A stretch of 48,475 bases of DNA from an uncultured bacterium (GCA_964372275.1 CAYJRR010000017.1:1-48475), one strand, 5' to 3'; positions 941 through 45,921 are shown, numbered from the stretch's first letter. Numbers and translations: made by a program. The notes: generated from the sequence alone by a model not told the origin.

Positions 941-1016
941 GTCCCCATCGTCTAGAGGCCCAGGACGCGGCCCTTTCAAGGCTGCAACACGGGTTCGAAT
1001 CCCGTTGGGGACGCCA
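941..1016 (+). tRNA. tRNA-Glu (anticodon TTC)
   Basis: 76 nt; acceptor stem GTCCCCA/TGGGGAC, TCGTCTAGAGGCCCAGGAC D region typical of tRNA-Glu, anticodon loop CTTTCAA, GGTTCGAATCC, encoded CCA. Confidence 0.97.
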
Positions 1017-1018
1017 CG

Positions 1019-1579
1019 TCATCCACCCGCGCGCAATGCGCGCGCGAGCGACATGTAGGGGGCGTTCTGGAGATCGTCGGCGATCGGCTCGTCGGCGAGC
1101 TCACCCAAGGTTCGGGTCTGGCCGTCGGGGATCCAGAAGCTCTCCCAGGGGGCGTTCCCTTCGCCGCGCGGGGTGGCGGTGAGGCGGCCGGGGATGGCGG
1201 CTTCGTAGACGCGCGCCTCCCCCTCGCCGGCGGCGTAGCCGACGGCGATCCGCGCCACGCCGTGCGCGCCGTCGTGGCGTTTGCGCCAGGCCGAGCCCTC
1301 CGGGTCCTCGAACGCCTGGCGGAACGAGGCGCCGGAGACGACGCCGTCCGCGAGCTCGATCGACAACGCCTCGGCGAAGACGGGGGCGCCCAAGACCTTG
1401 AACGCCTCCTGCGCGCGAAAGCGGGCGACGGCGCCGGGGCCGCCGCTGGGCGGGACCGGGAGGCGCGCCGTACGGCGTTCGATCTGGACCTCGGCCTCCT
1501 CCTCCAGGAGGCCGGCGATCTCCTCGAACTTCTCCTCGTTGGTGGTCAGGAAAAAGGCGTGCGGAGCGGGGGCGTTCAC
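1019..1579 (-). CDS. Ham1/RdgB (ITPase)-fold protein with degenerate active site
   Basis: FLTTNEEKFEEIAGLL matches the Ham1 N-terminal TxNxxK motif; C-terminal GRLTATPRGEG-x-WESFWIPDGQTRTLGEL matches the family. Catalytic Asp and SHR motifs are missing. Start GTG 1579 chosen by domain boundary. Confidence 0.75.
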   Translation of the reverse strand: MNAPAPHAFFLTTNEEKFEEIAGLLEEEAEVQIERRTARLPVPPSGGPGAVARFRAQEAFKVLGAPVFAEALSIELADGVVSGASFRQAFEDPEGSAWRKRHDGAHGVARIAVGYAAGEGEARVYEAAIPGRLTATPRGEGNAPWESFWIPDGQTRTLGELADEPIADDLQNAPYMSLARALRAGG

Positions 1580-1630
1580 GCCCGGAAGGAGATACTCTCC
1601 CGGACGGCATTGCAAGCCGGAGGTCGGTCG

Positions 1631-2056
1631 ATGGCGTACGACGAGAAGCTGGTCGAGAGGATCCGCAAGGCGTTCCCCGCCGGTTCCAAGGCGGTGGAGA
1701 AGAAGATGTTCGGCGGCGTCGCCTTCCTGCTCGACGGGAAGATGACGGTCGGCGTGCTCGGGGACGAGCTGATTGCGCGCGTCCCGCCGGAGGAGAACGA
1801 CGCCCTCGTGCGGCGGCCGCACGCGCGGCAGTTCGACTACACCGGCCGCCCGATGAAGGGTTGGATCTACATCGCCCCCGCGGGCTTGAAGACACCGGCA
1901 TCGCTCAAGGGATGGATCGAAACCGCGGTCGGCTTCGCGCGGGCGCTGCCGGCCAAGACGCCGAAGAAACGCCCACCGCCGAAACTTCCCGGCCGCCGCG
2001 CCCGCACGAGGGAATCGGTGGCCGCCCCCTCCGGGCGTCGCGTGGTACGGGACTAA
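1631..2056 (+). CDS. TfoX/Sxy N-terminal domain protein
   Basis: MAYDEKLVERIR...EKKMFGGVAFLLDGKM...FDYTGRPMKGWIYI; GGAGG at 1619-1623 upstream of ATG 1631. Confidence 0.9.
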   Translation: MAYDEKLVERIRKAFPAGSKAVEKKMFGGVAFLLDGKMTVGVLGDELIARVPPEENDALVRRPHARQFDYTGRPMKGWIYIAPAGLKTPASLKGWIETAVGFARALPAKTPKKRPPPKLPGRRARTRESVAAPSGRRVVRD

Positions 2057-2242
2057 AAGCGTGAGTGACCGGTCGCGGACGTCCGGCGCAATCGTTCCGT
2101 CCCCGCAAGTCCGACTCGACCTTCCTGATTTCCAAGGTGAATCGGTGACCGTGTCCGGCCGGTCGCACCCTGGCGTCGGAGTTGCTCCCCTGACTCCTCG
2201 GAGGAGATCACGATGACCACGCGCACGCTCGTCACTAGACGG

Positions 2243-2398
2243 TCACTCCGAGCGGTCAGCCGACGTTCGGACGCACGTCTTCGAGGCGGGCCTGTCGGAC
2301 GCCTCAGGGTGCTGCTCTAACAAGTCGGTCTGCGGGGGCGCCCGCGCCGGAGCCACGGTCGGTGGATCGGTGGGGAGGCCGAGATGGCGAAGAATGCC
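2243..2398 (-). pseudogene. Remnant of an IS91/ISCR-like transposase C-terminus
   Basis: ILRHLGLPTDPPTVAPARAPPQ resembles the C-terminal tail of IS91-family transposases; no catalytic (HUH/Y) part upstream. Confidence 0.55.
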
Positions 2399-2553
2399 CA
2401 CCTGGCCGTTTCGAAGGCAACCGGCGCGCCGGTCGGGGGAGGCGAGCCCCGGACGCACCGGCCTTCGACGCCCGGCGCGTCAGCGCTTCGTCCCGCACAT
2501 GGCGCGGAAGTGGGGTTCCCCGGAGCGTGGGCGGAAGCGCTACGATCGCGCCG

Positions 2554-3165
2554 GTGATCCGACTCCTCGCGCTGCTCGTCCTTGCGTCGCCGCCAATCGA
2601 CAATGCGGTTCTTCCCGCTGATGCCGATGCCGGAGCCGCTGGGGAGGAAATGACCTCTTCACGACCCCTCCAGCTGAAGCTCGATGCCGGATGGGCGTTC
2701 TTTCGGAAGACGGACGAGGATGAAGACCGCATTTTCAGCGGGCGGCTCCCGTACGAATTGAGCGCATACCTGGGCTTCCCACGGCGTCTGATGCCGCGAG
2801 CGACCCCGTTCTACGGCTTCGGTGTGAGTGCCTCGGTGATCGGCGCTCACTACTACCAACTATCGGTTGGCCCGACGGCGAACGTCGGATTCGTTTTCTC
2901 GGGCCGAGACGTGGGGTTCCTCGATTTGTCGGTCACACCCGTGTTGGGTCGGCGCCTCACCGAAGGAGCCGGGGGGCGTCCGACCCGGATCGCCGGGATC
3001 GGAGGCGGGGGCCGAATTGGTATCGGGGTGGCGCTTCCATACCTGTTCGCACTCCGTTGTCCTAATCACGTCGAGGTGCTCTACGAGCACTACGTCGACT
3101 CGGACTACGGACCGCGGAGATCGTGGATCGCTCGAATCGGCATTGGCGGGATCGGTCGGCCGTAG
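2554..3165 (+). CDS. Hypothetical exported protein, possibly a small outer-membrane beta-barrel
   Basis: Signal-like N-terminus ([12 protein letters not shown]) and alternating strand-like segments ([45 protein letters not shown]); more A/T at third codon positions than neighbouring genes. Confidence 0.55.
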
Positions 3166-3348
3166 GCGCCCCGCCGGCCGATCCGAAAAGAGCGGATCGC
3201 GCGCACCCCCACGCCCGGCTCCCCGAGCGTTCGTTTCACCGCCGTCGGACGTGTGATCTCCCCTCTCCCGGAGTCACCCCGCGACGCGATCCTTCGTCTC
3301 CGCGGCCAGCACCTCCACGGCCCAGAAATACACCGGCTCGGTCTTCCC

Positions 3349-4284
3349 CTAGCGTCCTGTCCCAGAAAACAGCGATACAAATGGTCGGAAAATGGCGGCG
3401 TCGATTCGTCACCAACCGTCTGGACGGCCTTTTCGACGAGCCGCGGCCCGGTGCTCCCCGAACGATCTCCGATGCGGCCGTCGAGCGTGTGCTTACGCCC
3501 ACGCTCGAGAGCGTTCCCGAGGACGCAATGCATTGGTCGACGCGCTCCATGGCGAAGGCGTCGGGATTGAGCCGCAGCACCGTTCATCGTACTTGGCGCG
3601 CTTTCTCGCTCCACCCGCACCGGTCCGACACGTTCAAGCTGTCCAAGGATCCACTGTTCATCGAGAAGGTTCGCGACATCGTCGGCCTCTACCTGGACCC
3701 GCCGGACCGTGCGCTCGTTCTGTGCGTCGATGAGAAGAGCCAAATCCAGGCGCTCGACCGCAGCCAGCCGGTTCTTCCCATGCGGCCTGGCCAGATTGAG
3801 CGGAGAAGTCACGACTTCACTCGGCACGGAACGACCTCGCTCTTCGCCGCATTGGACGTGAAGGAAGGCCGCGTGATCGGCGAACTCCATCGGCGCCACC
3901 GCAGCATCGAATTCCGAAAGTTCCTGGAGACGATTGAAGCGAACGTTCCCGCCGACCTCGATCTCCACCTCGTCCTCGACAACTATGGAACGCACAAGAC
4001 TCCGTTGATCCGGCGATGGCTGAAGCGGCACCCACGCTTCAAACTGCACTTCACGCCGACCAGCGCCTCGTGGCTCAACCTGTTCGAGCGTTGGTTTGCG
4101 CTCCTCACGGAAAAACAGATCCGCCGAGGCGTTCACCGGAGCACGAGGGAACTCGAAGACGCGATCCGACGCTACCTGCGCCTCCACAACCACGATCCGA
4201 AGCCCTTCGTGTGGACGAAGACCGCCGACGAAATCCTCGCGAGCCTCGCCCGATTTTGTAATCGAATCTCTGGGAGGACACTAG
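3349..4284 (+). mobile_element. IS630-family insertion sequence, internally deleted
   Basis: Ends CTAGCGTCCTGTCCCAGA (3349) and TCTGGGAGGACACTAG (4284) form an imperfect inverted repeat; CTAG at both ends fits TA duplication; encloses a DDE transposase. Confidence 0.9.
3381..4284 (+). pseudogene. IS630 transposase, 5'-truncated with a frameshifted end
   Basis: [41 protein letters not shown] (D), VLDNYGTHK (D), [10 protein letters not shown] (E), [13 protein letters not shown]. The first HTH region is absent and the frame reads past the IS end to 4382. Confidence 0.85.
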
Positions 4285-5177: not shown

Positions 5178-5274
5178 GAGACGATTATAAAGACCCCCTT
5201 TTGTATTTAGAAAAGATCAGATCGATTCCGTATTTCATGCCGTCACCACTATCCTGCGGAACGTGGAGGTGGAC

Positions 5275-6633
5275 ATGTCCCTGCGACGACGAACGCTGGC
5301 GATGGCGATGCTGCTCTCCGGATGCACGGCCCCAGGGGGCGATCGGCCCGAACCGACCCCGGAGGAGACACTCCCCCCACCCGGCTGCGACGGACAGGTG
5401 CTGCTGGAGCTCGACGGGGCGGAGCTGGTCCGATCGGGGGTCGACGGCGCGCGGCAGACCCTGTTCCGGCTCGGAGAGTCGGCCGGACTGCCGCCGGAGA
5501 GCGTCGTCCCTCTGCAGTGGATCCACCGCGGCCAGTCGATCGCGGCGCTCGCCTTCCTCTACGACGACCCGGGCCACCGCTACGAGCTCGTCCGTCTCGA
5601 CCTCGGCGGGGAGGTGATGTTCCACCGGATCTTTCAGGCGGAGTACAACCCCACCCTGCACCTCGCGGACGACGGATCGATGGCGCTGGCCGGCGAGGAG
5701 AGCCTGGCGGTGCGCCCCGACGGCGACACGGTCGAGCTCGGTCCGGTCCATCCCCTCGCCGCCCCGCACGGCGATCACCTTCTCGTCGCCGACACCCCGC
5801 CCTGGCAGGGGGCACTCCACCCCGGCTGGCTCGACCTCCACGACTTGACGCGCGAGCCGCTCGACGAGACGCCGATCGAGTTCCCGGAGTTCGTCGACCT
5901 GGGGAGCTCCGTGCTCTACGAAGCGACGGGCGATCGCCTGGTCGTCACGTCGCCGATGGTCACCCGTGCCTTCGAGCATCCGGACCTCGGTCCGACGGCC
6001 GTCGCGGTCGTCTTGGACGTGACCTCCGACCCGACCTTCGTGTTGCTGGCGTCGAGCGACGGCGACCGGCTGGAGCGACTCGATCTCTACGCGCAGCGTC
6101 TCGACCCGATCGCGCTCGACGACTCCTCGAACGCCTGGACCTTCGACGCGCGCTTGACGCCGACGGGATCGGTGCTCGCGACCTCCCTCCTCGGGGACGG
6201 CCGCCCGCAGCTCCGCCGGACCGACGACCTCGGACTCACCTGGCAGCCGGTCGGAACGCCGATGACCTCCCAGGACGATCTCGGTTTCATGGACCACCTG
6301 CTCCCGATCGCGCGGGGGGACCGCGTGATGGTGCTCCACCTCTCGCGCGGGTACGGCGATTTCCTGCAGGAGGTGCAGTTCGTCTCCCCCGACGCGTCGG
6401 TCCAATCGATCGCGGCCGGTGGACTCTACGTGAACGCCGACCTCGACCCGGGCGCCGCCGCGCTCGCCGGGGACGGCGCCTGCGCCGCCACCTGGATCCG
6501 GCGCGCGGATGGCACGACCGGCGACGCGGTGTTCGATCTCCATTGGATCGACACCGTCACCGCGGAGAGGACGGCCGTCCGTTCTTCCGACCGCGTCTCC
6601 CGCCTCCTCTTCGGCGAACGTCCGGTCCCGTAA
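5275..6633 (+). CDS. Hypothetical acidic lipoprotein, probably beta-rich (propeller-like)
   Basis: RBS GGAGGT at 5265-5270; MSLRRRTLAMAMLLSG-C lipobox; BNR-like RTDDLGLTW segment; GC3-rich codon usage. Confidence 0.75.
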   Translation: MSLRRRTLAMAMLLSGCTAPGGDRPEPTPEETLPPPGCDGQVLLELDGAELVRSGVDGARQTLFRLGESAGLPPESVVPLQWIHRGQSIAALAFLYDDPGHRYELVRLDLGGEVMFHRIFQAEYNPTLHLADDGSMALAGEESLAVRPDGDTVELGPVHPLAAPHGDHLLVADTPPWQGALHPGWLDLHDLTREPLDETPIEFPEFVDLGSSVLYEATGDRLVVTSPMVTRAFEHPDLGPTAVAVVLDVTSDPTFVLLASSDGDRLERLDLYAQRLDPIALDDSSNAWTFDARLTPTGSVLATSLLGDGRPQLRRTDDLGLTWQPVGTPMTSQDDLGFMDHLLPIARGDRVMVLHLSRGYGDFLQEVQFVSPDASVQSIAAGGLYVNADLDPGAAALAGDGACAATWIRRADGTTGDAVFDLHWIDTVTAERTAVRSSDRVSRLLFGERPVP

Positions 6634-6712: not shown

Positions 6713-7729
6713 ATGTCCGACGACGTCCTGCGGTCGTTCCCGCTCGGGTTCCCCTGGCCGACGATCGATCCGTTCCTCTTCTGCGCCTACCACGACGACG
6801 CCTATCCGGCGGGGAACGAGGCGATGGGCCCGTCAACCCCGCTGGACGGGCGCCGCTTGGGGGAGGACTTCGAGCCGAAGGACGGCTGGCGGATGTACCA
6901 CGGGACGGCGATCCCCGGTTTCCCCCGGCATCCGCATCGCGGATTCGAAACGGTGACCGTGGTCCGGCGCGGAACGGTCGACCATTCCGACTCCCTCGGA
7001 GCGACGGCACGACTCGGGTCGGGGGATGTCCAGTGGATGACGGCGGGCAGAGGGATCGTCCACGCCGAGATGTTCCCTCTGCTCGACCGCGCCGCGCCGA
7101 ATCCGCTCGAGCTGTTCCAGGTCTGGCTCAACCTGCCCCGGCGCGACAAGCTCGCCGACCCGCACTTCGCGATGTTCTGGGCCGAGTCCGTTCCCCGCCT
7201 CCGTCTCGAGGCCCGCGGCGGCGCGGTCGACGTGACGGTCTGCGCCGGGGAGCTCGGCGGCCGCCGCGCCCCGCCACCGCCGCCCCGGTCCTGGGCCGCC
7301 TCCCCCGAGTCGGACGTGGCGATCTGGACGATCCGCGTCGACGCCGGCGCCGCCTGGACGCTGCCCCCCGCATCCGGGCCCGCGACGGGGCGCACGCTCT
7401 ACTTCCACCGCGGCACGCGGATCCGACTCGCCGGAACGACGATCGACGCCGGCAACGCCGCCGTGGTACGAGCCGATCGCCCGATCGAGATCGCCGCCGT
7501 CGGTTCGGCCGCCGACCTCCTGTTGCTGCAAGGACGCCCGATCGGCGAGCCGGTGGCTCCGTACGGACCGTTCGTGATGTCGACGCGGGAGGAGATCCTC
7601 CGCGCGTTCGACGACTACCGGCGTACCGAATTCGGCGGGTGGCCGTGGCCGAGCGACGGTCCGACGCACCCGCGGGAGGCCGGACGGTTCGCGCGACACG
7701 CCGACGGCCGCATCGAGCGCCCGACCTGA
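6713..7729 (+). CDS. Pirin family protein
   Basis: DPFLF, GFPRHPHRGFETVT, DHSDSLG, VQWMTAGRGIVHAE, FQVWLNLP, EPVAPYGPFVM. Confidence 0.95.
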   Translation: MSDDVLRSFPLGFPWPTIDPFLFCAYHDDAYPAGNEAMGPSTPLDGRRLGEDFEPKDGWRMYHGTAIPGFPRHPHRGFETVTVVRRGTVDHSDSLGATARLGSGDVQWMTAGRGIVHAEMFPLLDRAAPNPLELFQVWLNLPRRDKLADPHFAMFWAESVPRLRLEARGGAVDVTVCAGELGGRRAPPPPPRSWAASPESDVAIWTIRVDAGAAWTLPPASGPATGRTLYFHRGTRIRLAGTTIDAGNAAVVRADRPIEIAAVGSAADLLLLQGRPIGEPVAPYGPFVMSTREEILRAFDDYRRTEFGGWPWPSDGPTHPREAGRFARHADGRIERPT

Positions 7730-7790
7730 TTCCACCGCGGCCGGTCCGGTCCGCTTGAGATCCGCGCCCGATCCGGTACGCAACGGGTGC

Positions 7791-8927
7791 ATGAAGACCT
7801 CGCTCGGCCTCGCCGCCGCGTCGCTGCTCGCCGTGACCGCCGGCATCGGCTGCAACGACGGGCCGCTGGTCGGGCTTCCCGGAACACGCACCGAGATCCA
7901 CCAACAGGAGCACCGGGATCCGACGCCGCCGAAGGTCGACCTCCTCTGGGTGATCGACGACTCCGGGTCGATGGCCGACGAACAAGGCCGGCTCGCGGAG
8001 AGCTTCCAGGCGTTCGCCGACCGCGCCCTCGAGATCGGTCTCGACCTCCATCTGGCGGTGACCAGCGCCGATCCGACCGCCGGCGGCGAGCGAGGCCGCT
8101 TCGTCGGATCGCCCGCGGTCCTGACTTCCGACACCCCGAACTGGAGCGCCGAGTTCGTGCAGCGTGCGCTCCTCGGAACCGGCGGCAATTCACGCGAGGC
8201 CGGCCTGCAGACGGCGCGGATGGCCCTTTCCGAGCCGCTCCTCTCGGCCGAGAACGCGGGGTTCCGGCGGCCGGGCGCGCGCCTGGCGCTCGTCTTCCTG
8301 AGCGACGAGGACGACCAGACGTTGCCGGACGGCGCGCCCGAGCCGACGTCGGCGGAACTCCGGAGCGCCGCATGGCGAGACACGAACCTCGTCCCCGTCG
8401 CGGAGCTCACCGACTTCTTCTCGCAGCTCGACGGCGACGGGTCGCCGTCGCTCTACGCCACCGCCATCGTCGGCGATCCGGTCGGGGACCGGTCCGCCGG
8501 GGTCGACTTCGACCAGACCGGATGCGAGACCGATCCGACCAACGGCGACCACGACGCGCGTGGAGGGTTCCGGTACGCGGCCGCCGTCGCCGCCTTCGGT
8601 GGCGGATGGCACAGCATCTGCGGCGGCGTCGACCAGTTTCGCGCAATCCTGGAGGAGCTCGCCGACGACGTCGCCCCCCCTTCGCCGCTCCGAACCGAGT
8701 TCGCGCTCGAGCACGAACCCCTTCCCGGTAGCCTCTCCGTGACGGTCGACGGCGTCGACGTGCCCGACGATCCCGACTCCGGATGGAGCTGGGTCCCCGG
8801 CGTGGGCGTCGTCTTCTCGGAGGCCGCGATCCCGCCCTCCTGCGCCCGGATCGAGTTCCACTACCGGCTCCCCCCGGGCGTGCGCCACCCGCCGTCCCAG
8901 CCCCACACGTCGCCCGGCTGTTCCTAG
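7791..8927 (+). CDS. VWA-domain lipoprotein (myxobacterial type)
   Basis: Lipobox GIG-C; KVDLLWVIDDSGSM (MIDAS DxSxS), EAGL, GFRRPGARLALVFLSDEDD; Cys-containing C-terminal beta domain. Confidence 0.85.
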   Translation: MKTSLGLAAASLLAVTAGIGCNDGPLVGLPGTRTEIHQQEHRDPTPPKVDLLWVIDDSGSMADEQGRLAESFQAFADRALEIGLDLHLAVTSADPTAGGERGRFVGSPAVLTSDTPNWSAEFVQRALLGTGGNSREAGLQTARMALSEPLLSAENAGFRRPGARLALVFLSDEDDQTLPDGAPEPTSAELRSAAWRDTNLVPVAELTDFFSQLDGDGSPSLYATAIVGDPVGDRSAGVDFDQTGCETDPTNGDHDARGGFRYAAAVAAFGGGWHSICGGVDQFRAILEELADDVAPPSPLRTEFALEHEPLPGSLSVTVDGVDVPDDPDSGWSWVPGVGVVFSEAAIPPSCARIEFHYRLPPGVRHPPSQPHTSPGCS

Positions 8928-12353: not shown

Positions 12354-15300
12354 ATGGCCAGCGTCGTCGTCCAGGAGTTCGAGAAGGCCGCGTGGGCCGA
12401 CCCCGCACAGCTGGAGCAGTTCGTCGCGTCGGTCGCTTCGCTCGACCTCTCCGAGACGAAGAAGATGCTCGCCATCCTCACCAACATCCGGACGGCGTCG
12501 GACGCCGCCGCGCATCGGAAGCGATGCGTCGTCTTCGGGCGGTTGGCGGCGAAGTTCCCCCACAAGGAGATGTTCCTCGAGTTCGTCCAGGTCCTGAAGG
12601 GCGAGGACCCGCAGGTTCGGGCGCTCATGGCGCTGCTGTTGCCGGCGGTGAACAACGTCACGCAGCATCCCGAGCTTTGCGCCGTCCTGCGCCACGGAAA
12701 CCCCGACGTGCGGCGCGCCGCCGCCGGGGTCTTGCGCCAGATCGGCGGGAAGACGGTCTTCCGGCTGCTCGGTGAGTTCCTGACCGAGCGCGTCTTCGCC
12801 GGTCGCATCGAGGCGATGGACATCCTGGTCGGGGTCGCGGGGCACCACGCGATCCCGTCGCTCGCGCCGGTCCTGGCCACCGGCACCGACGAGGACAAGA
12901 TGCACGTCCTCGCGCTCCTTTCCGACGCCCGCTACATGGCGGCGGCACGGGCGTCGGCGATCAAGGCGATCCTCCCGGCGCTGCGCGACCTGAACGAGGA
13001 GGTGGTCGTCCGCGCCGTCCAGGCGATCAACGCCGAAGGCGCCGAGGACGACTTCTTCGTGCACCTGGAACCGCGTCTCGACGCGGCGAATCTGCGCTTG
13101 ACCCGCGCCATCCTCGAGGGGCTCAAGCGCTTCAACAGTCCGCGGGCGATCAACACCTTGCAGGAGCGGTTCCGGGCCGGTCCGAACAAGGTGCGCCTCA
13201 TCGTGCTGGAGATCCTGGAACAGATCGGGACGACGGCAATCGTTCCGATCCTGGTCGAGGCCGCGAACAGCCGGTATCTGCAGGTGCGCACCTCCGCCGC
13301 CGGCGTGCTCTCCAACCTCGGAAAGTCGGGAAAGATCGATCCGGCGATCACCATCCTGGGACTCTTGCGCAGCTCGGACGAGGTGGTCCGCCGCATCGCC
13401 GCGGACGTCGCCGCCAACATGGGCAAGGCCGACACCGAGCTCTGGAAGCGCCTGCTCGGCTACTTGCGCGATGAAGACTGGTGGGTGCGCGAGCGGGTGA
13501 TGGACGCGCTCCTGCAGATGACCGGGTCGGAGCTTTCGAGCCACGTCCTGTGGCTCCTGAACGACCCGTCGGAGGTCGTCCGTCGATTCGCGGTGAACGC
13601 GTTGATGCGCCTGAAGCCGCCCGAGGCGCTGCAACCGCTGGCCAAGGCCGCCACCTCCGACCCCGACTGGTGGGTGCAGGAGCTTTCGATCGAGGCGATC
13701 GGCGTGCTCGGCGACAAGCGCGCGGTGCCCTTCCTGCTCGAGCGCCTCTTCGCCAACGAGGACACGCGACTGGTCTGCATACGGGCGCTCGCCGCGCTGG
13801 GGGACCCGTCGGCGGCGCCGCACCTCGCCAAGCTCCTCGCCGCGGCCGAGCCCGACCTGCGCATGGCAGCCCTGCAGGCGTTGGCCACTCTCAACGACCG
13901 CGAGCAGCGCCTCGCCATCCAACCGCTCACCGAGGATCCCGACGTCCGCGTGCGCGCCTTCGCGCGGGAGTTGCTGGGCCGATGGGGCCTCAACTGGAAG
14001 GACGCGCAGACCGGCGCCATCGGCAGGGCCCTTTCGCCGCTCGATCAACTTCTCGTCTCGTGCGCGCAGGCAAGCGGCGACGACCTGATCCTGCTCGCAT
14101 GGCGGCCACCGACGGTAAAGAGCATGGGGGTGACCGTCGCGCTCTCGGACAACCTGATCAGCGCCGACGACATGGAGAAGCTGATCTACCCGTGCCTGAC
14201 CTCCGAGCAGAAGGAGGACCTCAAGGCGCTCCGCGACGTCGACTTCTCCTACGAGGTCCGTTCGGAGGGCCTGCGCTTCCGCGTCAACGTATTCCGCCAT
14301 ACGACGGGGCTGGGGGCGGTCTTCCGGATCATCAAGGGCGAAGTCCCCGACATCGAGAAACTGGGGCTTCCGCCGATCGTGCAGGGCCTCGGCGACCTGA
14401 AGAACGGCCTGGTGCTGGTCGGCGGGCCGACCGGCGCCGGGAAGTCGACCACCCTCGCCGCGCTGATCGACTCGATCAATCGCAAGTACCCCAAGCACAT
14501 CCTCACCATCGAGGACCCCATCGAGGTGATCCACCAGGGGAAGCGCGGTCGCGCCACGCAACGCGAACTGGGCACGCATGCGCGCTCGTTCACGTCGGCG
14601 TTGCGCTCGACCTTGCGCGAAGATCCCGACGTCATCCTGGTCGGAGAGCTGCGCGACCTGGAGACGATCTCGTTCGCCGTCACCGCCGCCGAGACCGGCC
14701 ACCTGGTGCTGGGCACGGTCCACGCCGTGTCGGCCGATTCGGTCGTCGACCGTCTCATCAACGCCTTCCCCGCCGGGCAGCAGCCGCAGGTCCGCTCGAT
14801 GCTCGCCTCCTCGCTTCGCGCCGTGATCTGCCAGTACCTGATCCCGAAGAAGGACGGGAGCGGTCGCACGCTCGCCATCGAGATCATGTTGAACACCGAC
14901 GCCGTCTCCAACCTGATCCGCAAGGGGAAGGCGTTCCAGATCTCGTCGGTGATCGCCACCTCCCGTACCAACGGGATGCAGCTGATGGACGTGGAGCTCA
15001 CCCGGCTCTACCAGGAGGGGGTGATCACGGCCGAGGACGCCTACATGAAGGCGCGGTCGAAGAAGGACTTCGAGAAGATGCTCGCCGAGTCGGCCGATGC
15101 CGCGTCGGTGGCGGCGGGGGTCGCCGCGAGCGCCACCAACAAGCAGGCAGGCAGCCCGAACGCCGCCCCCCGCCCGATCCATCCCGCCGCCGCCGCGCCT
15201 TCGCCCCCCGGAGCGGTTCGTCCGGGGGTGGTCGGAACCGGCGCCCCCGCGCGCCCGGTTGTCCCCGCGCCGGCGACGGCGCAGGCGGCAACGCCGCCGT

Positions 15301-15437
15301 CCGCGCCGACCGCGCGGCCCGGCGTGCCGGGACCAAATCCGGCCGCAGCGACCGCCGCGCGACCGACGAACCCGCCCGGACCCGGCGCGCCGGCCGGTGG
15401 ACCGCCGGCGCCGACCACCGCCACGGGAACGAAGTAG
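12354..15437 (+). CDS. HEAT-repeat-PilT/PilU ATPase fusion with a Pro/Ala-rich tail
   Basis: About 550 aa of HEAT repeats (DVRRAAAGVL, DWWVRERVMDAL, EVVRRFAVNAL, DVRVRAFARELL), then RFRVNVF, Walker A GPTGAGKST, Asp box TIEDPIE, Walker B DVILVGELRD, His box TGHLVLGTVH, AVSNLIRK. Alternative start GTG 12321. Confidence 0.92.
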   Translation: MASVVVQEFEKAAWADPAQLEQFVASVASLDLSETKKMLAILTNIRTASDAAAHRKRCVVFGRLAAKFPHKEMFLEFVQVLKGEDPQVRALMALLLPAVNNVTQHPELCAVLRHGNPDVRRAAAGVLRQIGGKTVFRLLGEFLTERVFAGRIEAMDILVGVAGHHAIPSLAPVLATGTDEDKMHVLALLSDARYMAAARASAIKAILPALRDLNEEVVVRAVQAINAEGAEDDFFVHLEPRLDAANLRLTRAILEGLKRFNSPRAINTLQERFRAGPNKVRLIVLEILEQIGTTAIVPILVEAANSRYLQVRTSAAGVLSNLGKSGKIDPAITILGLLRSSDEVVRRIAADVAANMGKADTELWKRLLGYLRDEDWWVRERVMDALLQMTGSELSSHVLWLLNDPSEVVRRFAVNALMRLKPPEALQPLAKAATSDPDWWVQELSIEAIGVLGDKRAVPFLLERLFANEDTRLVCIRALAALGDPSAAPHLAKLLAAAEPDLRMAALQALATLNDREQRLAIQPLTEDPDVRVRAFARELLGRWGLNWKDAQTGAIGRALSPLDQLLVSCAQASGDDLILLAWRPPTVKSMGVTVALSDNLISADDMEKLIYPCLTSEQKEDLKALRDVDFSYEVRSEGLRFRVNVFRHTTGLGAVFRIIKGEVPDIEKLGLPPIVQGLGDLKNGLVLVGGPTGAGKSTTLAALIDSINRKYPKHILTIEDPIEVIHQGKRGRATQRELGTHARSFTSALRSTLREDPDVILVGELRDLETISFAVTAAETGHLVLGTVHAVSADSVVDRLINAFPAGQQPQVRSMLASSLRAVICQYLIPKKDGSGRTLAIEIMLNTDAVSNLIRKGKAFQISSVIATSRTNGMQLMDVELTRLYQEGVITAEDAYMKARSKKDFEKMLAESADAASVAAGVAASATNKQAGSPNAAPRPIHPAAAAPSPPGAVRPGVVGTGAPARPVVPAPATAQAATPPSAPTARPGVPGPNPAAATAARPTNPPGPGAPAGGPPAPTTATGTK

Positions 15438-16514
15438 ATGGCCCGCATCGACTCCTTCCTGCGACTGGTCGCCGAGCAACGCGCGAGCGATCTGCACTTC
15501 GGCGCCGGAAACATCCCGATGGTCCGCCACGACGGCGACCTGGTCCCGCTGCCGTTCCGCGCGCTGTCGGAGACCGAAGCGGAACGTTTCCTCCTCGAGA
15601 TCATGAGTCCGGACCAGCGCCGGGTCCTGAAGGAAGAGCAGCAGGTCGACTTCGTCTACGCCCTCGAAGGGTACGGCCGCTACCGGGCCAACGCCTTCCG
15701 CCACTCCAAGGGTCTCGGCGCGGTCTTCCGGATCATCCCCGACCGCATCCCGTCGATGGAGGACCTGAAGCTTCCGGCGTCGCTGAAGAAGCTCACCGAG
15801 ATGGCGAACGGCCTGGTGCTGGTCACCGGTCCCACCGGCAGCGGCAAGAGCACCACGCTGGCGGCGCTGGTGGCGGAGATCAACCGCACCTCCAACCGGC
15901 ACATCATCACCATCGAGGATCCGGTCGAGTTCCTCCACGAGCCGATCAACTGCGTCGTCACCCAACGGCAGGTCGGGCTCCACGCCGAGAGCTTCGCCGC
16001 GGCGCTGCGCTCGGCGCTACGGGAGTCGCCCGACGTGCTGGTGGTGGGCGAGATGCGCGACATGGAGACGATCTCGCTCGCGCTGTCCGCCGCCGAGACC
16101 GGCGTGCTCGTCTTCGGAACGCTCCACACCAACTCCGCCCCCAAGGCGGTCGACCGCATCCTCGACTCCTATCCGGAGGAGTCGCGCGATCCGGTCCGGG
16201 GCGTGCTCTCGGTCCTGCTCAAGGGGGCGATCGCCCAGCACCTGATCCGCGTCTCGAGCGGCGACGGCCGGCTGGGAGTGTTCGAGGTAATGCTTCACGA
16301 CTACGCCGTGGCGAACCTGATCCGCGAGAACAAGCTGCACCAGATCGACGGCTATCTCGCGTCGGCGGAGAACGCCAATACCGGCGTGCAGAGCCTCGAC
16401 GGCCACCTGATCCGGCTCCTCCGGCAGGGCCTGGTCACGCTCGACGACGCGCTGCTCGTCGCCAACCACCCCGACCGCATCCGGAAGGCGGCGGCCGAGC
16501 TGCAGGAGGAGTAG
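15438..16514 (+). CDS. pilT: PilT/PilU-family type IV pilus retraction ATPase paralogue
   Basis: ASDLH, RYRANAF, GPTGSGKST, TIEDPVE, DVLVVGEMRD, GTLHTNSA, AVANLIRE; ATG directly follows the upstream TAG. Confidence 0.93.
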   Translation: MARIDSFLRLVAEQRASDLHFGAGNIPMVRHDGDLVPLPFRALSETEAERFLLEIMSPDQRRVLKEEQQVDFVYALEGYGRYRANAFRHSKGLGAVFRIIPDRIPSMEDLKLPASLKKLTEMANGLVLVTGPTGSGKSTTLAALVAEINRTSNRHIITIEDPVEFLHEPINCVVTQRQVGLHAESFAAALRSALRESPDVLVVGEMRDMETISLALSAAETGVLVFGTLHTNSAPKAVDRILDSYPEESRDPVRGVLSVLLKGAIAQHLIRVSSGDGRLGVFEVMLHDYAVANLIRENKLHQIDGYLASAENANTGVQSLDGHLIRLLRQGLVTLDDALLVANHPDRIRKAAAELQEE

Positions 16515-16570: not shown

Positions 16571-17455
16571 TCAGCGCGCCTGGCCGGCGCCGGCCGACGA
16601 TCCCGTGCCGGAGGTCGCGGTGACGGCGCCGCTCGCGGGGCCGCGGCCGACGTTCGATCCGCCGGCGAGCGGCTCGGCGACGATCATCGGGAGCGCGCCT
16701 TGGACCGGCCGGCTGGCGGTCGTCGCCCGCAGCATCGTGGCGCCGCTGATCCGTTCCTGTCCCAGGATCCCGGACATCCAGACCACCTTGCCCGAGCGGT
16801 CCGCCCACTTCTTGCCGGAGACGAGCAGATGCCGGCCCGGCGCGACCGTCAAGCGGCCGGTCTGTCCGTTCATGCCGTGGCGAAACGGGTGGTACTGGCC
16901 GCGGACCGCGATCGGGCTCTCGACACCGCCGAGGAAGCCCGGGTTGCAGGGGCAGCGGTAGAACGTGGTCGGGCCCTTCAGCGTGACGGTCGCGCCGCTC
17001 AAGGCGTGGAGCCGTCCCGCGAGGTCGAGGTCCTTGACGTCGTAGATGACCGTCCCCATGCGGATGCCGACGATCGGCCGACAACGCGCGTTCGGCGGAC
17101 AGGCCGGATCGTTACGAAGTTCGACGACGCCGGTGATGAACTCGTCGGAGCGGCCGGGGGCGAAGCCGACCGCCTCGATCGACGGCGCCGGCGTCGAGCG
17201 CCCCTTCGCGACCCCCTTCACCGTCACGACCTTCCGGTCGAAGGCCTGCAGGTCGGCCACGAGATCCCCGCGGACGCGCATCCACCGGTCGCCGTCGGCC
17301 AGCGCGACGATCGGCTTGCACGGGCCGGGGTAGCAGCGCGGGACCGAAACCTCCACGCGACCGGTGAACGACGTCAGGCCCCTCTCCGCGGCGGCGATGG
17401 CGGGAAGGAGGACGGCGGCGGCGACGAAAACGCTCTTCATCGATCGTGCGGTCAT
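16571..17455 (-). CDS. Secreted hypothetical protein with internally repeated Cys-containing modules
   Basis: RBS AGGAGA (17461-17466); signal peptide MKSVFVAAAVLLPAIAAA; repeats FTGRVEV..CYPGPCKPIVAL..DLQAFDRKVVTVKG and ITGVVEL..CPPNARCRPIVGI..RLHALSGATVTLKG. Confidence 0.75.
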   Translation of the reverse strand: MTARSMKSVFVAAAVLLPAIAAAERGLTSFTGRVEVSVPRCYPGPCKPIVALADGDRWMRVRGDLVADLQAFDRKVVTVKGVAKGRSTPAPSIEAVGFAPGRSDEFITGVVELRNDPACPPNARCRPIVGIRMGTVIYDVKDLDLAGRLHALSGATVTLKGPTTFYRCPCNPGFLGGVESPIAVRGQYHPFRHGMNGQTGRLTVAPGRHLLVSGKKWADRSGKVVWMSGILGQERISGATMLRATTASRPVQGALPMIVAEPLAGGSNVGRGPASGAVTATSGTGSSAGAGQAR

Positions 17456-17494
17456 GTCGGTCTCCTGGCGGTTCGGGCGTGGACGCCGCCGCCA

Positions 17495-17508
17495 GCAATG
17501 CCCATGCC
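17495..17508 (-). promoter_or_regulatory. Putative sigma54 -24/-12 promoter
   Basis: Minus strand CGGCAT-GGGCA-TTGCT (GG-N10-GC), 40 nt upstream of ATG 17455. Confidence 0.6.
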
Positions 17509-17684
17509 GGCCATCGCGCGAGAAATCGCTTTCGCGCCGCGGTGCGATCGCGGGATCGCCCTGCGATGTGGGGCATGGCCGTCTCATCCGATCCGGTCGC
17601 TGCGGTGAATCGTGGATCAACGTCCGGGCCGCGTCGTCGCCGTCGCATGGCGCGTCCCTCCGGAGCCGCTATCTTCGATCTCCT

Positions 17685-23343: not shown

Positions 23344-23449
23344 CGTTCCCCCCTCGCTTCGCGACCGATAGGTCGGCCGACGCGGGGATGCACGGCGTCC
23401 GGCACCGGCGGTCGCGCCGGCGCGCCAGGCGCGTTACGCTTCGGGGACG

Positions 23450-24706
23450 TTGACCTCCCGCCGCCTCCTCCTCGCGCTCTCCTTCGCCGGCCCCGTCGTC
23501 GCGATCGCGCTCGTTTGGCTGGTGTGGCGCGCGCTCGATCCCGCCGGAGGCCGGGCCGATCGGCCGTCCGACGGGAGACTGGCCGCCGCCTCGCACCGGG
23601 CGCCGACGTGGTTGCCGTGGCACGACCGGTCGCCCGACCCCGAGACGGCTTCGGCGCTCGCCGCGATCGGCGAGGCGCTGGGCTCCCTCGCCTCCGCGCT
23701 GGCGGCCGACGATCCCGACGGCTCTCGCGCCGCCTCCGACGCGCTGCGCGCCCTCCTCCTCGAACGGCCGGAGTTGGTCTCCGAGGTTGCGCCGGTCCTG
23801 GGCGATCCCCGCGCCGGATCGAGAACGCGCCAGGGGCTGGCGGCGGTGATCGGAACGATGCCGGGCCCGGCCGCGGCGCGCGCGCTCGCCGAAAGCCTCG
23901 GGGCGGGCGACGGAAAGGACGATCCGGCGGTGGAGCGCGCGCTCGTCCTCTCGGCCGGCGCGGCGCGCCTCGACGCCGAGGCGGAGGACGGCTTCGATCG
24001 CGCGGACGTCCCCAACGGCCTCCGCATAGTCGGCGGAATCGGCGTCGTCGTCGACGGTCCGATCGAGGACACGTCGCTCCGCGATGCGGTGGCGATGCGG
24101 CTCTCGGACGCGTCGACGCCCGACGCCGGCGTACGCTGGGCCGCCGCGCGGGCGCTCGGAGGCTCGATCCCCGACCCGGAGATCCGCCGACTCTGCCTCG
24201 AGCGCGTGGCCCTCGAACGCGACGGGGAGGTGCAAGGGGAGCTGGGGGCCGGGCTCGCCGACTGGATCGCGCGACCGGGCGCGGGGGCCGACCGGTCGGT
24301 GGCCGCCGATCGCCTGCTCGAGGTGGCCGCGCGCCCCGACGCCGGCGCGCTCCGTTTCCGGATCGAATCGGCCCTCGGGAGGGCTCCGCTCGACGAGTCG
24401 CAGGAGGCGCGCCTCGCGGCGCAGTCGGCCGACGCCGATCCGGGGACCCGGCTGTTCGCGCTGCAGATCGCGGGATCGCGGCTGCGCGCCGACGGCCCGA
24501 CGAACGCGGCGCTACGCGAGGCGGCGCAGGAGCGCCTGCGCCGCGATCCTCACCCCAAGGTGCGTGCGGCGGCGGCGCGGGCGCTCGCCGGACTCGCCTC
24601 GCGCGACCCCAAGGCGACCGTGGCGCTGGAGGAAGCGGCGAAGGCCGACCGCGAGCCGAGCGTGCGCGCCGCGGCCGCGGCCGCGCTCGGACGCGGCGTA
24701 GATTAG
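23450..24706 (+). CDS. Membrane-anchored HEAT-repeat protein
   Basis: N-terminal TM helix; repeats GVRWAAARALG, DPHPKVRAAAARALA, DREPSVRAAAAAALG. Confidence 0.8.
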   Translation: MTSRRLLLALSFAGPVVAIALVWLVWRALDPAGGRADRPSDGRLAAASHRAPTWLPWHDRSPDPETASALAAIGEALGSLASALAADDPDGSRAASDALRALLLERPELVSEVAPVLGDPRAGSRTRQGLAAVIGTMPGPAAARALAESLGAGDGKDDPAVERALVLSAGAARLDAEAEDGFDRADVPNGLRIVGGIGVVVDGPIEDTSLRDAVAMRLSDASTPDAGVRWAAARALGGSIPDPEIRRLCLERVALERDGEVQGELGAGLADWIARPGAGADRSVAADRLLEVAARPDAGALRFRIESALGRAPLDESQEARLAAQSADADPGTRLFALQIAGSRLRADGPTNAALREAAQERLRRDPHPKVRAAAARALAGLASRDPKATVALEEAAKADREPSVRAAAAAALGRGVD

Positions 24707-27765: not shown

Positions 27766-28272
27766 ATGCTCCGGATCGTCCTCCTCGCCACGCCTCTCCT
27801 CCTCGCCGCCGAGCCGGTTCCGGCTCCGACCGCGGCCGCGACCGTGGCGACTCCGGGCCCTACGCCCACCCCCTCGTTGCAGCCGATCGAGATCCACTCC
27901 GAGCGGTCGGTCTACGAGGGTTCCGGCGCCGAACGCCGGGCAATCCTGTCGGGGAATGTCGTGGCCCGCCAAGGGGATCTGACGATCCGCGCCACCCAGG
28001 TGGAGGCGATCCTCGCCGGTCCCGACAACCGCATCGAACGGGTCGTCGCGCACGGGGGGATCGGCGTCACCTCCGGCGGCCGACACGCCCGCGCCGACCG
28101 TGTGGAGTTCGACAACGCCCGCCGGACACTGGTCCTGTCCGGGGACCCCAAGCTCTGGGACAGGGACACGCGGGTGGTGGGCGAACGGATCGTGCTCCAC
28201 GTCGACGAGGGAACGCTGGAGTGCTTCCGTTGCCGCCTCGACCTGGACCCCGCCCAGCTCCCGAGCCCTTAG
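27766..28272 (+). CDS. lptA: LptA/OstA family periplasmic protein
   Basis: PIEIHSE, LSGNVVARQGDLTIRA, IERVVAHG, LVLSGDPKLW, GERIV. Confidence 0.85.
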   Translation: MLRIVLLATPLLLAAEPVPAPTAAATVATPGPTPTPSLQPIEIHSERSVYEGSGAERRAILSGNVVARQGDLTIRATQVEAILAGPDNRIERVVAHGGIGVTSGGRHARADRVEFDNARRTLVLSGDPKLWDRDTRVVGERIVLHVDEGTLECFRCRLDLDPAQLPSP

Positions 28273-31055: not shown

Positions 31056-31065
31056 GTCCTGGATT

Positions 31066-44038: not shown

Positions 44039-44151
44039 CGGCCCCCCTCTCGAAGAGGGGCGCACCGTAGCACACTCGACATGAATGAACAATCACTCAC
44101 GAGCGCCCGGAACCTCCGTTCGCAATTTCGGGTTCACCGTTCCGTACCGCC

Positions 44152-45048: not shown

Positions 45049-45201
45049 GTTGGTCACCTCCCGTGCCCGGCAGGTCGACGATTCGACGGCCTGCACGCCG
45101 ACTTCATTCGGCCGGCCGAACCGGCTGTCGACGCAGAGAAATTCCCTTCGACGACCGGCGACGGTCGCCGTCCAGAGCGCGCGACGATAGACTTCGCGCG
45201 C

Positions 45202-45921
45202 GTGCGACGAGCGCTCCTGTTCACCGATGGCGCATGCTCCGGCAACCCCGGCCCCGGGGGATGGGCCGCGATCGTGCGCCTCCCCGACGGAACGGTCCGC
45301 GAGCTCGGCGGATGCGATCCGCGAACGACCAACAACCGGATGGAGTTGATCGCGACGATCGAGGGTTTGCGCGCGGTCGAGTCGCTGCCCGAGCTCCCGG
45401 TCGACCTCTACACCGATTCGACGTACGTCATCTCCGGAATCACGCAGTGGGTCCACGGCTGGAAGCGCAAGGGCTGGACGAAGGCCGACGGCGAACCGGT
45501 TCTGAACCGCGATCTGTGGGAGACGCTCGACCGCCTGAACGCCATGCGCCGCGGCGAAGGCGCGGTGGCGTGGCAGTTCGTCCGCGGGCACTCCGGCAAT
45601 CCCGGGAACGAGCGCTGCGATGCGATCTCGGTCGCCTTTTCCCGCGGCGACAGGCCACCGCTCTACCGCGGTCCGGAGACCGGGTACGACGTCGACCTGT
45701 CGATCGTCCCCGCCGCGGCCCCGCCCCCCGCGCTGCGCGCGAAGGAGCGACGCGCCCCATCGGGAAAACCGGTCTACCTGAGCTACCTCGACGGCCGCCT
45801 CGAGCGACACGCCACCTGGAACGAGTGCCAGGCGCGCGTCCGCGGACGCTCGAACGCCCGCTTCCGCAAGGTCACGAGTCCCGAGGAAGAGAAGGTCGTG
45901 CTGAAGAGTTGGGGACTCTAG
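45202..45921 (+). CDS. rnhA: Ribonuclease HI with a C-terminal hybrid-binding (Cauli_VI-like) domain
   Basis: FTDGACSGNPGPGGW, TTNNRMEL, YTDSTYV, VRGHSG..NERCD (D-E-D-D); C-terminal HATWNECQARVRGRSNARFRKV. Confidence 0.93.
   Translation: MRRALLFTDGACSGNPGPGGWAAIVRLPDGTVRELGGCDPRTTNNRMELIATIEGLRAVESLPELPVDLYTDSTYVISGITQWVHGWKRKGWTKADGEPVLNRDLWETLDRLNAMRRGEGAVAWQFVRGHSGNPGNERCDAISVAFSRGDRPPLYRGPETGYDVDLSIVPAAAPPPALRAKERRAPSGKPVYLSYLDGRLERHATWNECQARVRGRSNARFRKVTSPEEEKVVLKSWGL

Follow-up and report, generated by a model that had tools for sequence, protein, structure and literature searches.

A hitherto undescribed, conserved pair of genes for a HEAT-armed PilT-family ATPase and its partner ATPase

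The motors of the PilT family are viewed as stand-alone homohexamers with subunits of about 350-400 residues, and both PilT and PilB use a two-fold open/closed pattern. PR65, CAND1 and karyopherin-beta2 have an established role in holding other proteins. In PilT, residues D32, S73 and E178 and the His box from T221 to H230 are described as belonging to its open and closed interfaces (PMC6858323), and in PilB the first His-box histidine is said to help sandwich the Thr of an inter-chain contact (PMC5424180). PilU is reported to be dependent on PilT (PMC6762196). The two have been modelled as stacked homohexamers, and in the same report a bacterial two-hybrid assay in M. xanthus gave no PilT-PilU contact (PMC13584747). 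That source also describes MXAN_6705 and MXAN_6706, adjoining M. xanthus PilT paralogues outside the pil cluster that are highly conserved across the Myxococcales, and a partial S-motility defect upon deletion of MXAN_6706 (PMC13584747).

Two adjoining genes for PilT-family ATPases were analysed in the DNA of an uncultured bacterium, within a window of 48,475 nucleotides (GCA_964372275.1, CAYJRR010000017.1:1-48475). The first-pass annotation had described them as a HEAT-PilT fusion abutting a second PilT, an architecture unusual for PilT. Open reading frames, Pfam and TIGR01420 matches, independent contigs and relatives confirm this description, including the large N-terminal solenoid in gene 1 (Table 1).

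Table 1. Features of the gene pair, in positions of the window
Feature	Position	Strand	Evidence
Gene 1 (P0001), HEAT-solenoid::PilT-family ATPase fusion, 1027 aa + stop	12354..15437	+	Open ORF; Pfam, NCBIfam
Predicted HEAT solenoid arm, residues 1-545, 34 helices, ~17 hairpins	12354..13988	+	Pfam HEAT_2; AF2 model
Predicted flexible linker, residues 547-559 (~13 aa)	13992..14030	+	pLDDT <50 in full-length model
Gene 1 PilT-family ATPase domain, residues 563-905	14040..15068	+	TIGR01420, 406.5 bits; motifs
Pro/Ala-rich C-terminal tail, residues 916-1027	15099..15434	+	Translation
Gene 2 (P0002), partner PilT-family ATPase, 358 aa + stop	15438..16514	+	TIGR01420, 410.2 bits

The frame of gene 1 is open from a GTG start option at 12321 as well as from the ATG at 12354, and it is with this ATG that the N-terminus of the homologues lines up in their consensus. 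Gene 1 matches Pfam HEAT_2 (E 1.2e-45, 8 stretches), HEAT (E 3.6e-22) and T2SSE (E 7.5e-43). Both proteins score above the curated cut-off of 319.1 bits for NCBIfam TIGR01420, the PilT/PilU family, gene 1 over model positions 2-343 and gene 2, with its residues 4-345, over positions 2-341. The ATPase of gene 1 is in frame and full, as first annotated, and it has Walker A, the Asp box and Walker B along with the two His-box histidines. The HEAT block had been placed from about 12600 with a length of about 550 aa; the length holds (~545 aa), but the block begins near residue 4, at nt ~12363. The Pro/Ala tail of about 110 aa likewise exists but is poorly kept in relatives (alignment occupancy 0.16-0.47, conservation 0.06-0.22), most of which are 907-970 aa long against the 1027 aa found here. 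At the gene boundary (15435-15440 region) the DNA reads ...AAGTAG and continues directly with ATGGCC..., so the TAG-ATG abutment is correct and the ATG of gene 2 stands at the base after the TAG of gene 1. The closest solved relative of gene 2 is PilT 3jvu (E 7.6e-92, full length).

In the structure models the N-terminal part of gene 1 is a solenoid of the scaffold type, attached by a flexible tether. The arm was modelled with a pLDDT of 90.5 and a pTM of 0.73; the full-length model has a mean pLDDT of 84.3 yet a pTM of just 0.48. The top Foldseek matches of the arm are PP2A-A/PR65, CAND1, karyopherin-beta2 and SF3B1. Its conservation among homologues peaks at residues ~300-450, where the motifs at 371-382 and 436-443 are near-invariant.

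The fusion is not confined to this genome. Gene 1 has 418 database relatives at E<=1e-3, and the 119 of these that were listed share 47-53% identity with it, are 875-1296 aa long and all carry HEAT and T2SSE. At least 512 metagenome matches were confirmed. Among 80 metagenome loci that were kept, the fusion is in frame in 73, cut by contig ends in 5 and split in 2. In all 59 metagenome loci that could be assessed the partner comes directly downstream of the fusion, at a spacing of -13 to +62 nt; three distant genomes show this arrangement in 7 of their 8 loci. Exceptions to the pairing are a fusion with no partner within 3.6 kb (L037), two stand-alone ATPases after one fusion (L036) and a gene of the partner type with no fusion near it (L053). 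In one genome there are as many as 5 copies of the pair, and their arms are highly divergent. In a single read-through protein (P0003, 1296 aa; n=1), HEAT, PilT and partner form one natural chain. These sequence comparisons support the view that the genes are obligately paired and diverge together, and that the pair is conserved in uncultured soil bacteria. No published description of a HEAT-armed PilT with a partner gene was found in the literature, and the pair is a conserved one so far undescribed. It has probably gone unstudied because all its named carriers are uncultured and known from metagenome-assembled genomes.

It could be argued that a HEAT gene and a pilT gene were joined by misassembly or a frameshift, as the window comes from a metagenome-assembled genome of 225 contigs and in two of the related loci, L096 and L112, the fusion is split. 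The annotation had asked for a check across 13980-14040. Contigs of independent assemblies span the HEAT/ATPase junction (X1 13708-14518, X2 13688-14149, X3 13808-14518) and the boundary between the genes (X2 15198-16020, X3 15150-15683). They come from three runs in two studies, with no insertions or deletions reported. GC3 is even along gene 1 (0.91 overall, against 0.93 in gene 2). Given the bridging contigs, the 73 fused loci and the 119 database homologues, an artefact is rejected and its probability is negligible. An ordinary PilT-PilU pair, with gene 2 or gene 1 as the PilU orthologue, was considered as another alternative; tandems of two PilT-family genes are what pilT-pilU operons look like, and TIGR01420 covers both families. 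The ATPase tree (51 rows, in which the PilU-like clade stands without a named reference PilU sequence) speaks against this. A split with support of 100/98 sets canonical PilT, encoded beside pilB/pilC, and the PilU-like copies apart from all fused and partner domains. A canonical PilT (C122) and a PilU-like gene (C161) are present in the host genome itself, both across this split, and the pair is only 39-40% identical to them (40% to the canonical PilT). The PilU-like clade (C161, L043, L044) has a support of 98/92, the partner clade 100/96, and 18 of 19 fused domains fall in one clade (86/96). By this phylogeny the fused and partner ATPases are two sister clades, separate from PilT and from the PilU-like genes, and the branching order L011, L034, (L038,L039), (L035,L036) is mirrored in both. 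In the motif AIRNLIRE, which we take to be a PilT signature, the genome's canonical PilT reads AIRNLIRE, gene 1 AVSNLIRK and gene 2 AVANLIRE, the last two without the Arg; the PilU-like gene on C161 has no LIR-type motif. Naming gene 2 PilU, or the two genes PilT and PilU, is unsupported and very improbable, as neither falls within the clades formed by the PilT and PilU-like copies of the same genomes.

The two ATPases differ from each other at sites known from PilT (positions in PilT-Gm/P0002 numbering). Gene 1 has altered N-domain interface residues (I at 20, K at 30, M at 32). Gene 2 has its catalytic residues intact, with Val in place of the first His-box histidine (223), Val at 73 and Gln at 178. 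Across the sequences from the metagenome loci (66 fused, 51 partner), position 223 is H in 66/66 fused and V in 51/51 partner sequences, position 20 is I/V/L against H, position 32 is M/V/L/F against D/E/N/Q and position 73 is S against I/V/M/A, each without exception; position 178 is E in 66/66 fused sequences, and in the partners Q in 47 and E in 4. K137, E164, E205, H230, R81, R195 and R278 are retained in both. The same pattern is present in 9 fused and 9 partner distant copies and among the database homologues (119 fused, 119 partner), a set that overlaps the loci to some extent, where the first His-box histidine is V in 116 of the 119 partners. Judged from these alignments, published inter-subunit interface residues of PilT are changed reciprocally, each subunit retaining what the other has lost, which is new here.

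The annotation's observation that the window lacks pilin, PilC and secretin genes was borne out by Pfam for the 28 other ORFs scanned (2100-4200, 44092-45905 and the window ends lay outside the scan). No pilus genes were seen beside the pair in 8 distant loci, or by Pfam among 10 representatives of the recurrent neighbours in the 80 metagenome loci. In searches of the whole host genome, which is 94.6% complete, every T2SSF platform and secretin match lies on contigs other than that of the window: pilB-pilT-pilC on C122, more T2SSF genes on C21, C129, C30, C183 and C25, and secretins on C184, C12, C183 and C30. Another PilT paralogue of this genome carries a PilZ domain. The PADLOC anti-phage defence models gave no specific match, only generic partial HEAT/P-loop ones (best HEAT-ARM_XIII, 2.4e-17, 90 residues). 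Of 43 metagenome loci that could be assessed, 16 have directly downstream of the pair, and on its strand, a gene for a Ser/Thr kinase with a TPR-like N-terminal region of ~490 aa; L011 and L034 have it too. In the window the kinase is absent from the operon; the downstream gene there runs on the opposite strand and matched no family. The kinase's N-terminal region, used as the query, was not found in the host genome.

The sequences of both proteins suggest a single joint motor. The reading that we favour, at a little better than an even chance, is that the pair is a self-contained two-gene operon for specialised PilT-like hexameric ATPases that act as one motor with tethered scaffold arms. Subunit A would contribute the ~545-residue HEAT arm, the ~13-residue tether and a catalytically complete PilT-type ATPase, and subunit B a stand-alone ATPase, also catalytically complete. 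It is plausible from the sequences that the two bind each other in a heteromeric motor, as the annotation had proposed, and we infer both the association and its stoichiometry. As different interface residues are lost in each subunit and retained in the other, a mixed ring, for example an alternating A3B3 with three arms, would be the most likely assembly; stacked A and B rings, as proposed for PilT-PilU, would be less likely. Complex prediction, which paired the arm with the partner and not ring with ring, points weakly to contact between HEAT domain and partner: the score is 0.39 against 0.00 for the best control. Of 157 solved complexes 116 reached the mark, as did 2 of 215 mismatched pairs; at 0.60 or under, those that did so were just 18 of the 157, along with both mismatches. 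Contacts agreed by at least 47% between runs, and the partner pLDDT was at least 82. The arm may serve to anchor the motor at a site or on a partner protein, or gate access to it; substrate recruitment or localisation, suggested in the annotation, may also be its task. The motor would probably work on a type IV pilus-like platform whose genes lie elsewhere in the genome, a role that we infer from family membership only, with the pair as an accessory or conditional retraction-type motor. A bolder proposal is tentative and rather doubtful. By this the pair would be an obligate alternating A3B3, the first hetero-oligomeric ring of the PilT/VirB11 ATPase superfamily, in which A-B and B-A interfaces hard-wire a three-fold open/closed pattern. 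Its three arms would link the ring with a non-canonical partner, and Ser/Thr kinases would exert control in many lineages, making it a distinct motor class and not an accessory pilus retraction ATPase.

Two other explanations are unlikely. The genes may be merely co-transcribed and encode independent motors, separate homohexamers that act apart or in sequence, with each set of substitutions tuning the dynamics of its own interface. All catalytic residues are kept in both subunits, and therefore each could form its own homohexamer, as PilT-family proteins do in all the solved structures listed; D31 changes in PilT-Pa are reported to alter rather than abolish function (PMC6858323), and L037 and L053 hold the fusion and the partner type apart. 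Against independence stand the adjacency in 59 of 59 loci together with the mirrored branching, the strict reciprocity of the changes, the one read-through chain and the weak predicted signal between arm and partner. Alternatively, and with no better prospects, the arm might bind a cargo or regulator and the ring act on a non-pilus substrate, as a signalling or remodelling motor in a Ser/Thr-phosphorylation module. The downstream TPR kinase, the absence of pilus genes in cis at all loci examined, the up to 5 copies in one genome with such divergent arms and the regulatory add-ons, such as the PilZ domain, on the genome's other PilT paralogues are all in keeping with this. However, the window's own pair has no kinase beside it, that query did not find the kinase's N-terminal region in its genome, both ATPases are well over the TIGR01420 cut-off with PilT as their nearest solved structures, and M. 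xanthus PilT paralogues outside pilus clusters are reported still to affect pilus-dependent motility (PMC13584747).

The pair departs from the usual PilT in being widespread, in having a scaffold arm larger than the motor and in the way its subunits complement each other in their changes at the interface through which ATP hydrolysis is coupled from chain to chain. Should the two form a mixed ring, the pair would be a natural experiment on the open and closed interfaces that drive such motors, and a concrete handle on why myxobacteria-like organisms retain many PilT paralogues.

Compared with PilT of P. aeruginosa (3jvu), Aquifex (2gsz/2ewv) and Geobacter (6ojx/5zfq), both window proteins share the family score and have in common Walker A, the Asp box, Walker B, the arginines and the second His-box residue. 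They differ in their separate clade, in 40% identity to the genome's own PilT and in the reciprocal interface changes; gene 1 differs further by its 545-aa N-terminal solenoid, and the pair is not beside pilB or pilC. PR65, CAND1 and karyopherin-beta2 are, like the arm of gene 1, all-alpha hairpin solenoids of similar length (Foldseek E 1e-10 to 1e-8), but with TM-scores of only 0.3-0.4 and 13-17% identity there is no sign of common descent or shared ligands. The PilT-PilU tandems of Pseudomonas, Vibrio and Neisseria (in M. xanthus PilU is MXAN_1995) also combine two PilT-family ATPases, which presumably cooperate. PilU, however, is without a solenoid, neither window protein falls in the PilU-like clade, and reciprocal interface changes are not a feature reported for these tandems in the available text of the sources. 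Similar in layout are MXAN_6705 and MXAN_6706, compared here by description only, which are adjacent paralogues with a longer N-terminus on the first (PMC13584747). The MXAN_6705 extension is, however, described as predicted to be disordered, in contrast to the confidently folded solenoid of 17 hairpins modelled for gene 1, and the M. xanthus paralogues are given as 58-66% identical to PilT, against 40% for the window pair (PMC13584747).

A HEAT-repeat::PilT fusion (gene 1, encoding P0001) with a second PilT-family gene abutting it (gene 2, encoding P0002), as proposed in the first-pass annotation, was confirmed by ORF search, Pfam and TIGR01420, with the TAG|ATG boundary at 15437/15438. GC3 is 0.91 in gene 1 and 0.93 in gene 2, as expected for real genes in 70% GC DNA, and the N-termini of aligned homologues agree with the ATG at 12354. 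Pfam places eight HEAT_2 stretches (E 1.2e-45) in the 1027-residue P0001, followed by an ATPase domain, T2SSE; residues 563-905 of the protein are a full-length match to TIGR01420, the curated PilT/PilU model (406.5 bits, cut-off 319.1). P0002, the 358-residue partner, is likewise a full-length TIGR01420 match (410.2 bits), and the two ATPase domains are 44% identical. A scan for promoters and terminators was uninformative: it found no sigma-70-like promoter, and a single terminator-like site, on the minus strand inside gene 1, against a shuffle mean of 1.6.

Coordinates of the gene pair, of linked kinases and of other features observed (window positions unless a locus is named)
Feature	Position	Strand	Remark
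Gene 1 ORF	12321 (GTG) or 12354 (ATG) to TAG 15435-15437	+	ORF search
Gene 2 ORF	ATG 15438 to 16514	+	ORF search
Ser/Thr kinase	L079:5200-7500	+	directly after partner gene
Ser/Thr kinase	L011:9828-12134	+	directly after partner gene
Ser/Thr kinase	L034:1952-4234	-	directly after partner gene
High-GC3 ORF directly downstream of the pair	16571-17668	-	no Pfam family, no PADLOC match
Sizeable high-GC3 ORF	28269-31073	-	no Pfam family
Sizeable high-GC3 ORF	5191-6633	+	no Pfam family
Sizeable high-GC3 ORF	7578-8927	+	no Pfam family
TfoX-domain ORF	956-2056	+	TfoX N-terminal domain, E 1.3e-14
Second, unrelated HEAT_2 protein	23372-24706	+	E 6.6e-13
Stand-alone PilT-like gene pair (L050)	G022:C34:144058-148083		no HEAT arm
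PilT-family paralogue, contig C37	L004:3-1817	+	PilZ domain, Pfam E 2e-10, 41.4 bits
PilT-family paralogue, contig C16	L003:1081-2604	+	N-terminal extension without Pfam match
PilU-like copy, contig C161	L002:378-2183	-	no AIRNLIRE-type motif

The fusion is not peculiar to one assembly. Both the TAG-ATG boundary and the HEAT/ATPase junction are spanned by independent contigs from three public runs in two studies; these show no indels and no more than 2 base differences. Short 'joints' with sides of 20-24 letters link conserved motifs of the paralogous ATPase domains and are read as cross-matches rather than as rearrangements. A database search gave 418 proteins of the same architecture; those listed, 119 in number, have 47-53% identity and lengths of 875-1296 residues, and all combine HEAT with T2SSE. 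A HEAT-only search with a query alignment of 5 sequences gave at least 512 confirmed metagenome-contig matches. Of the 80 metagenome loci retained, the fusion is in frame in 73; in 5 the contig ends before the ATPase, and the remaining 2 are interrupted, by a frame change in L096 and by an in-frame stop in L112. The 20,888 representative proteins matched by the HEAT profile at E<=1e-30 are mostly giant generic HEAT proteins, and this search was unusable for counting fusions. The HEAT::PilT fusion with its partner is real and conserved.

By source name, the carriers among the matches listed are all uncultured assemblies, labelled Myxococcaceae, Myxococcales, Polyangia, Polyangiaceae, Bradymonadia and 'Deltaproteobacteria'. 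In the ESM Atlas, most clusters of this architecture come from Myxococcota and one from Acidobacteriota. Full-length copies were found in 2 of 60 other genomes sampled across Bacteria (two in G022 and five in G045), all 60 being related to the window's own genome, G000, at domain level only, and the 'phylum' scope consisting of G000 alone. A scan of genome contigs with poorly conserved query peptides gave 3 loci, one of which is a full-length fusion in a metagenome-assembled genome titled 'Rickettsiales' by its submitter (L011). The G000 assembly is 4.6 Mb in 225 contigs and 94.6% complete; its organism seems to be a member of a very sparsely sampled lineage, though the pair is closest to Myxococcota-labelled assemblies. 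The five HEAT-PilT modules of G045 (L036-L040), with arms 17-25% identical to that of the window, are among 15 PilT-family genes in that genome, and G022 has two modules (L034, L035) and 10 such genes. A 90%-identity protein cluster represented by a 939-residue fusion also includes many 'PilT' members of 348-373 residues on up to 28 contigs; these short members may stem from internal start calls, may be fragments, or may be unfused copies of nearly the same sequence.

The pairing is strict. In all 59 assessable metagenome loci the partner lies directly 3' of the fusion, the gap being estimated at -13 to +62 nt, and so it does in 7 of 8 loci from the distant genomes. No partner lies within 3.6 kb in L037; in L036 two stand-alone ATPases follow the fusion. 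One metagenome record, P0003 (1296 residues), is a read-through of HEAT, PilT and partner in a single chain, which may be genuine or may result from a sequencing error in the stop codon. The two adjacent PilT-like genes of L050 show an asymmetry like that of the pair, with Ile at the first His-box position in one and His in the other, and may represent the pair in a form without the arm.

The surroundings are otherwise variable. No pilin, platform or secretin gene was found by Pfam among the 28 other window ORFs scanned, beside the pair in the distant loci, or among the annotated recurrent neighbours of the metagenome loci. Only one gene recurs beside the pair, for a Ser/Thr kinase whose N-terminal region of about 490 residues is TPR-like; it is directly 3' and co-oriented in 16 of 43 assessable metagenome loci, and also in L011 and L034, from two distant genomes. 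It is absent beside the pair in the window, and one query for its N-terminal region found no match in the 94.6% complete G000. Elsewhere in the window, four high-GC3 ORFs match no Pfam family, and the second HEAT_2 protein adjoins S8 subtilase and Kelch-repeat genes. Another window ORF encodes an N-terminal TfoX domain; in other bacteria, competence pili are under the control of TfoX-type regulators.

The relationship of the pair to PilT and PilU was addressed with a maximum-likelihood tree of 51 ATPase domains, including all PilT-family copies of G000, G022 and G045, the L011 pair, and every 7th fused and every 6th partner sequence of the metagenome set, with the degenerate long-branch copy L065 left out. 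A 100/98 split sets all fused and partner domains apart from a PilU-like clade (98/92) and from the canonical PilT, whose gene adjoins pilB and pilC on contig C122. The window proteins are just 39-40% identical to the PilT and PilU-like copies of G000 itself. They are therefore neither PilT nor PilU, and a reading of the two genes as a PilT-PilU tandem is not supported. The partner clade (100/96) holds 17 partners and L053, and the fused clade (86/96) holds 18 of 19 fused domains. Branching order is mirrored between the two clades; inheritance and duplication have therefore acted on the pair as a whole. A quick tree agreed with this.

Other PilT-family paralogues of G000 also carry extensions. 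The C37 copy has about 250 C-terminal residues with a PilZ domain and looks like PilT fused to a c-di-GMP-receptor-type domain. The C16 copy, 66% identical to it, has about 140 additional N-terminal residues, and both lie near the fused clade in the tree. The PilU-like C161 copy has a Pro/Ala-rich C-terminal tail, recalling the disordered C-terminus of about 112 residues reported for M. xanthus PilU.

P0002 numbering coincides with that of Geobacter PilT (T133, T221, H230, D32). Neither family varies in the Walker A Lys, the Glu residues of the Asp box, the Walker B Glu, the arginines or the second histidine of the His box. Other conserved residues change in strictly complementary fashion between fused and partner sequences.

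Residues at complementary positions (PilT numbering) in 66 fused and 51 partner sequences
Position	Fused	Partner
223 (first His-box histidine)	H 66/66	V 51/51
20 (His of N-domain ASDLH motif)	I/V/L 66/66	H 51/51
30	K 65, M 1	R 51/51
32	M/V/L/F 66/66	D/E/N/Q 51/51
73	S 66/66	I/V/M/A 51/51
178	E 66/66	Q 47, E 4

The pattern repeats in 119 fused and 119 partner database homologues, whose overlap with the loci is of unknown extent, and in the 9 + 9 most distant copies; His is present at 223 in 8 of 8 canonical and PilU-like copies. Several of these positions are published interface residues. According to McCallum et al. 2019 (PMC6858323), D32 contacts P271 and G277 at the closed interface between PilT packing units, E178-S73 and I163-S73 are open/closed-interface contacts, and the His box carries the inter-chain contact T221-H230. 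In PilB, the two His-box histidines enclose the Thr side chain, the box being proposed to mediate inter-chain cooperativity (PMC5424180). Through these changes each subunit lacks a portion of the conserved interface and retains the portion that is missing from the other. Position 20 of the fused protein and position 223 of the partner gave no clear pattern of size compensation in 8 distant pairs (I-V, Y-T, F-T, F-S, I-A, Y-I, F-V, F-M).

The solenoid noted in the first-pass annotation is present, but it begins at the N-terminus rather than near 12600. Modelled from a 75-sequence alignment, it has 34 helices (pLDDT 90.5, pTM 0.73), and its best structural matches are the scaffold solenoids PP2A-A/PR65, CAND1, karyopherin-beta2 and SF3B1 (TM 0.3-0.4). 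A 915-residue model folds well in each half (mean pLDDT 84.3); the pTM of 0.48 and a pLDDT below 50 at residues 547-559 indicate an arm that is tethered to the ATPase, not packed on it. Conservation of the arm is highest at residues 300-450, and the Pro/Ala tail, also noted earlier, exists and is lineage-specific (occupancy 0.16-0.47); one of the two conservation alignments, that giving the occupancy, contained unrelated IleRS and histidine kinase ORFs, slightly lowering conservation. The near-invariant acidic Trp-Trp motif within residues 300-450 should not be over-read because part of it resembles the generic HEAT_2 consensus. Complex prediction of arm with partner scored 0.39 (runs 0.36, 0.39 and 0.47; best control 0.00), the runs sharing at least 47% of contacts with partner pLDDT of at least 82. 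Of 157 solved complexes 116 pass the mark for such predictions, as do 2 of 215 mismatched pairs; 18 of the 157 and both mismatches pass it at 0.60 or less. The prediction weakly supports binding.

The preferred reading is of the pair as one motor, and strict pairing, co-divergence and complementary interface changes favour a mixed ring. An alternating A3B3 ring of fused (A) and partner (B) subunits would combine two kinds of interface with three arms; a ring face carrying six arms of 60 kDa each would be crowded. A stacked double ring, as modelled for PilT-PilU in PMC13584747, is the chief other form that such a single motor could take. The arm would serve to hold a partner protein or to position the motor. 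This mechanism is a well-motivated hypothesis, not a result.

On the basis of family membership, the most likely target is among the type IV filament platforms that G000 encodes on other contigs. PilT paralogues outside the pil cluster of M. xanthus influence pilus-dependent motility, according to PMC13584747. Synteny nowhere ties the pair to pili, and given the frequent Ser/Thr kinase neighbour a signalling or non-pilus role is possible. A role as an anti-phage defence system was rejected, PADLOC giving generic matches and no system match.

No specific curated family was found for either protein, only the generic TIGR01420, and among the papers found, judged by title and abstract, none combines PilT with HEAT repeats in this architecture. 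The search gave no published description of the pair, which represents a variant within a known class of motor. The closest described case, likened by description, is MXAN_6705/MXAN_6706 of M. xanthus, for which the only literature found on MXAN_6705 was a 2026 PilU paper. According to PMC13584747, these two are an adjacent pair conserved across the Myxococcales, and MXAN_6705 has a longer N-terminus, described there as disordered.
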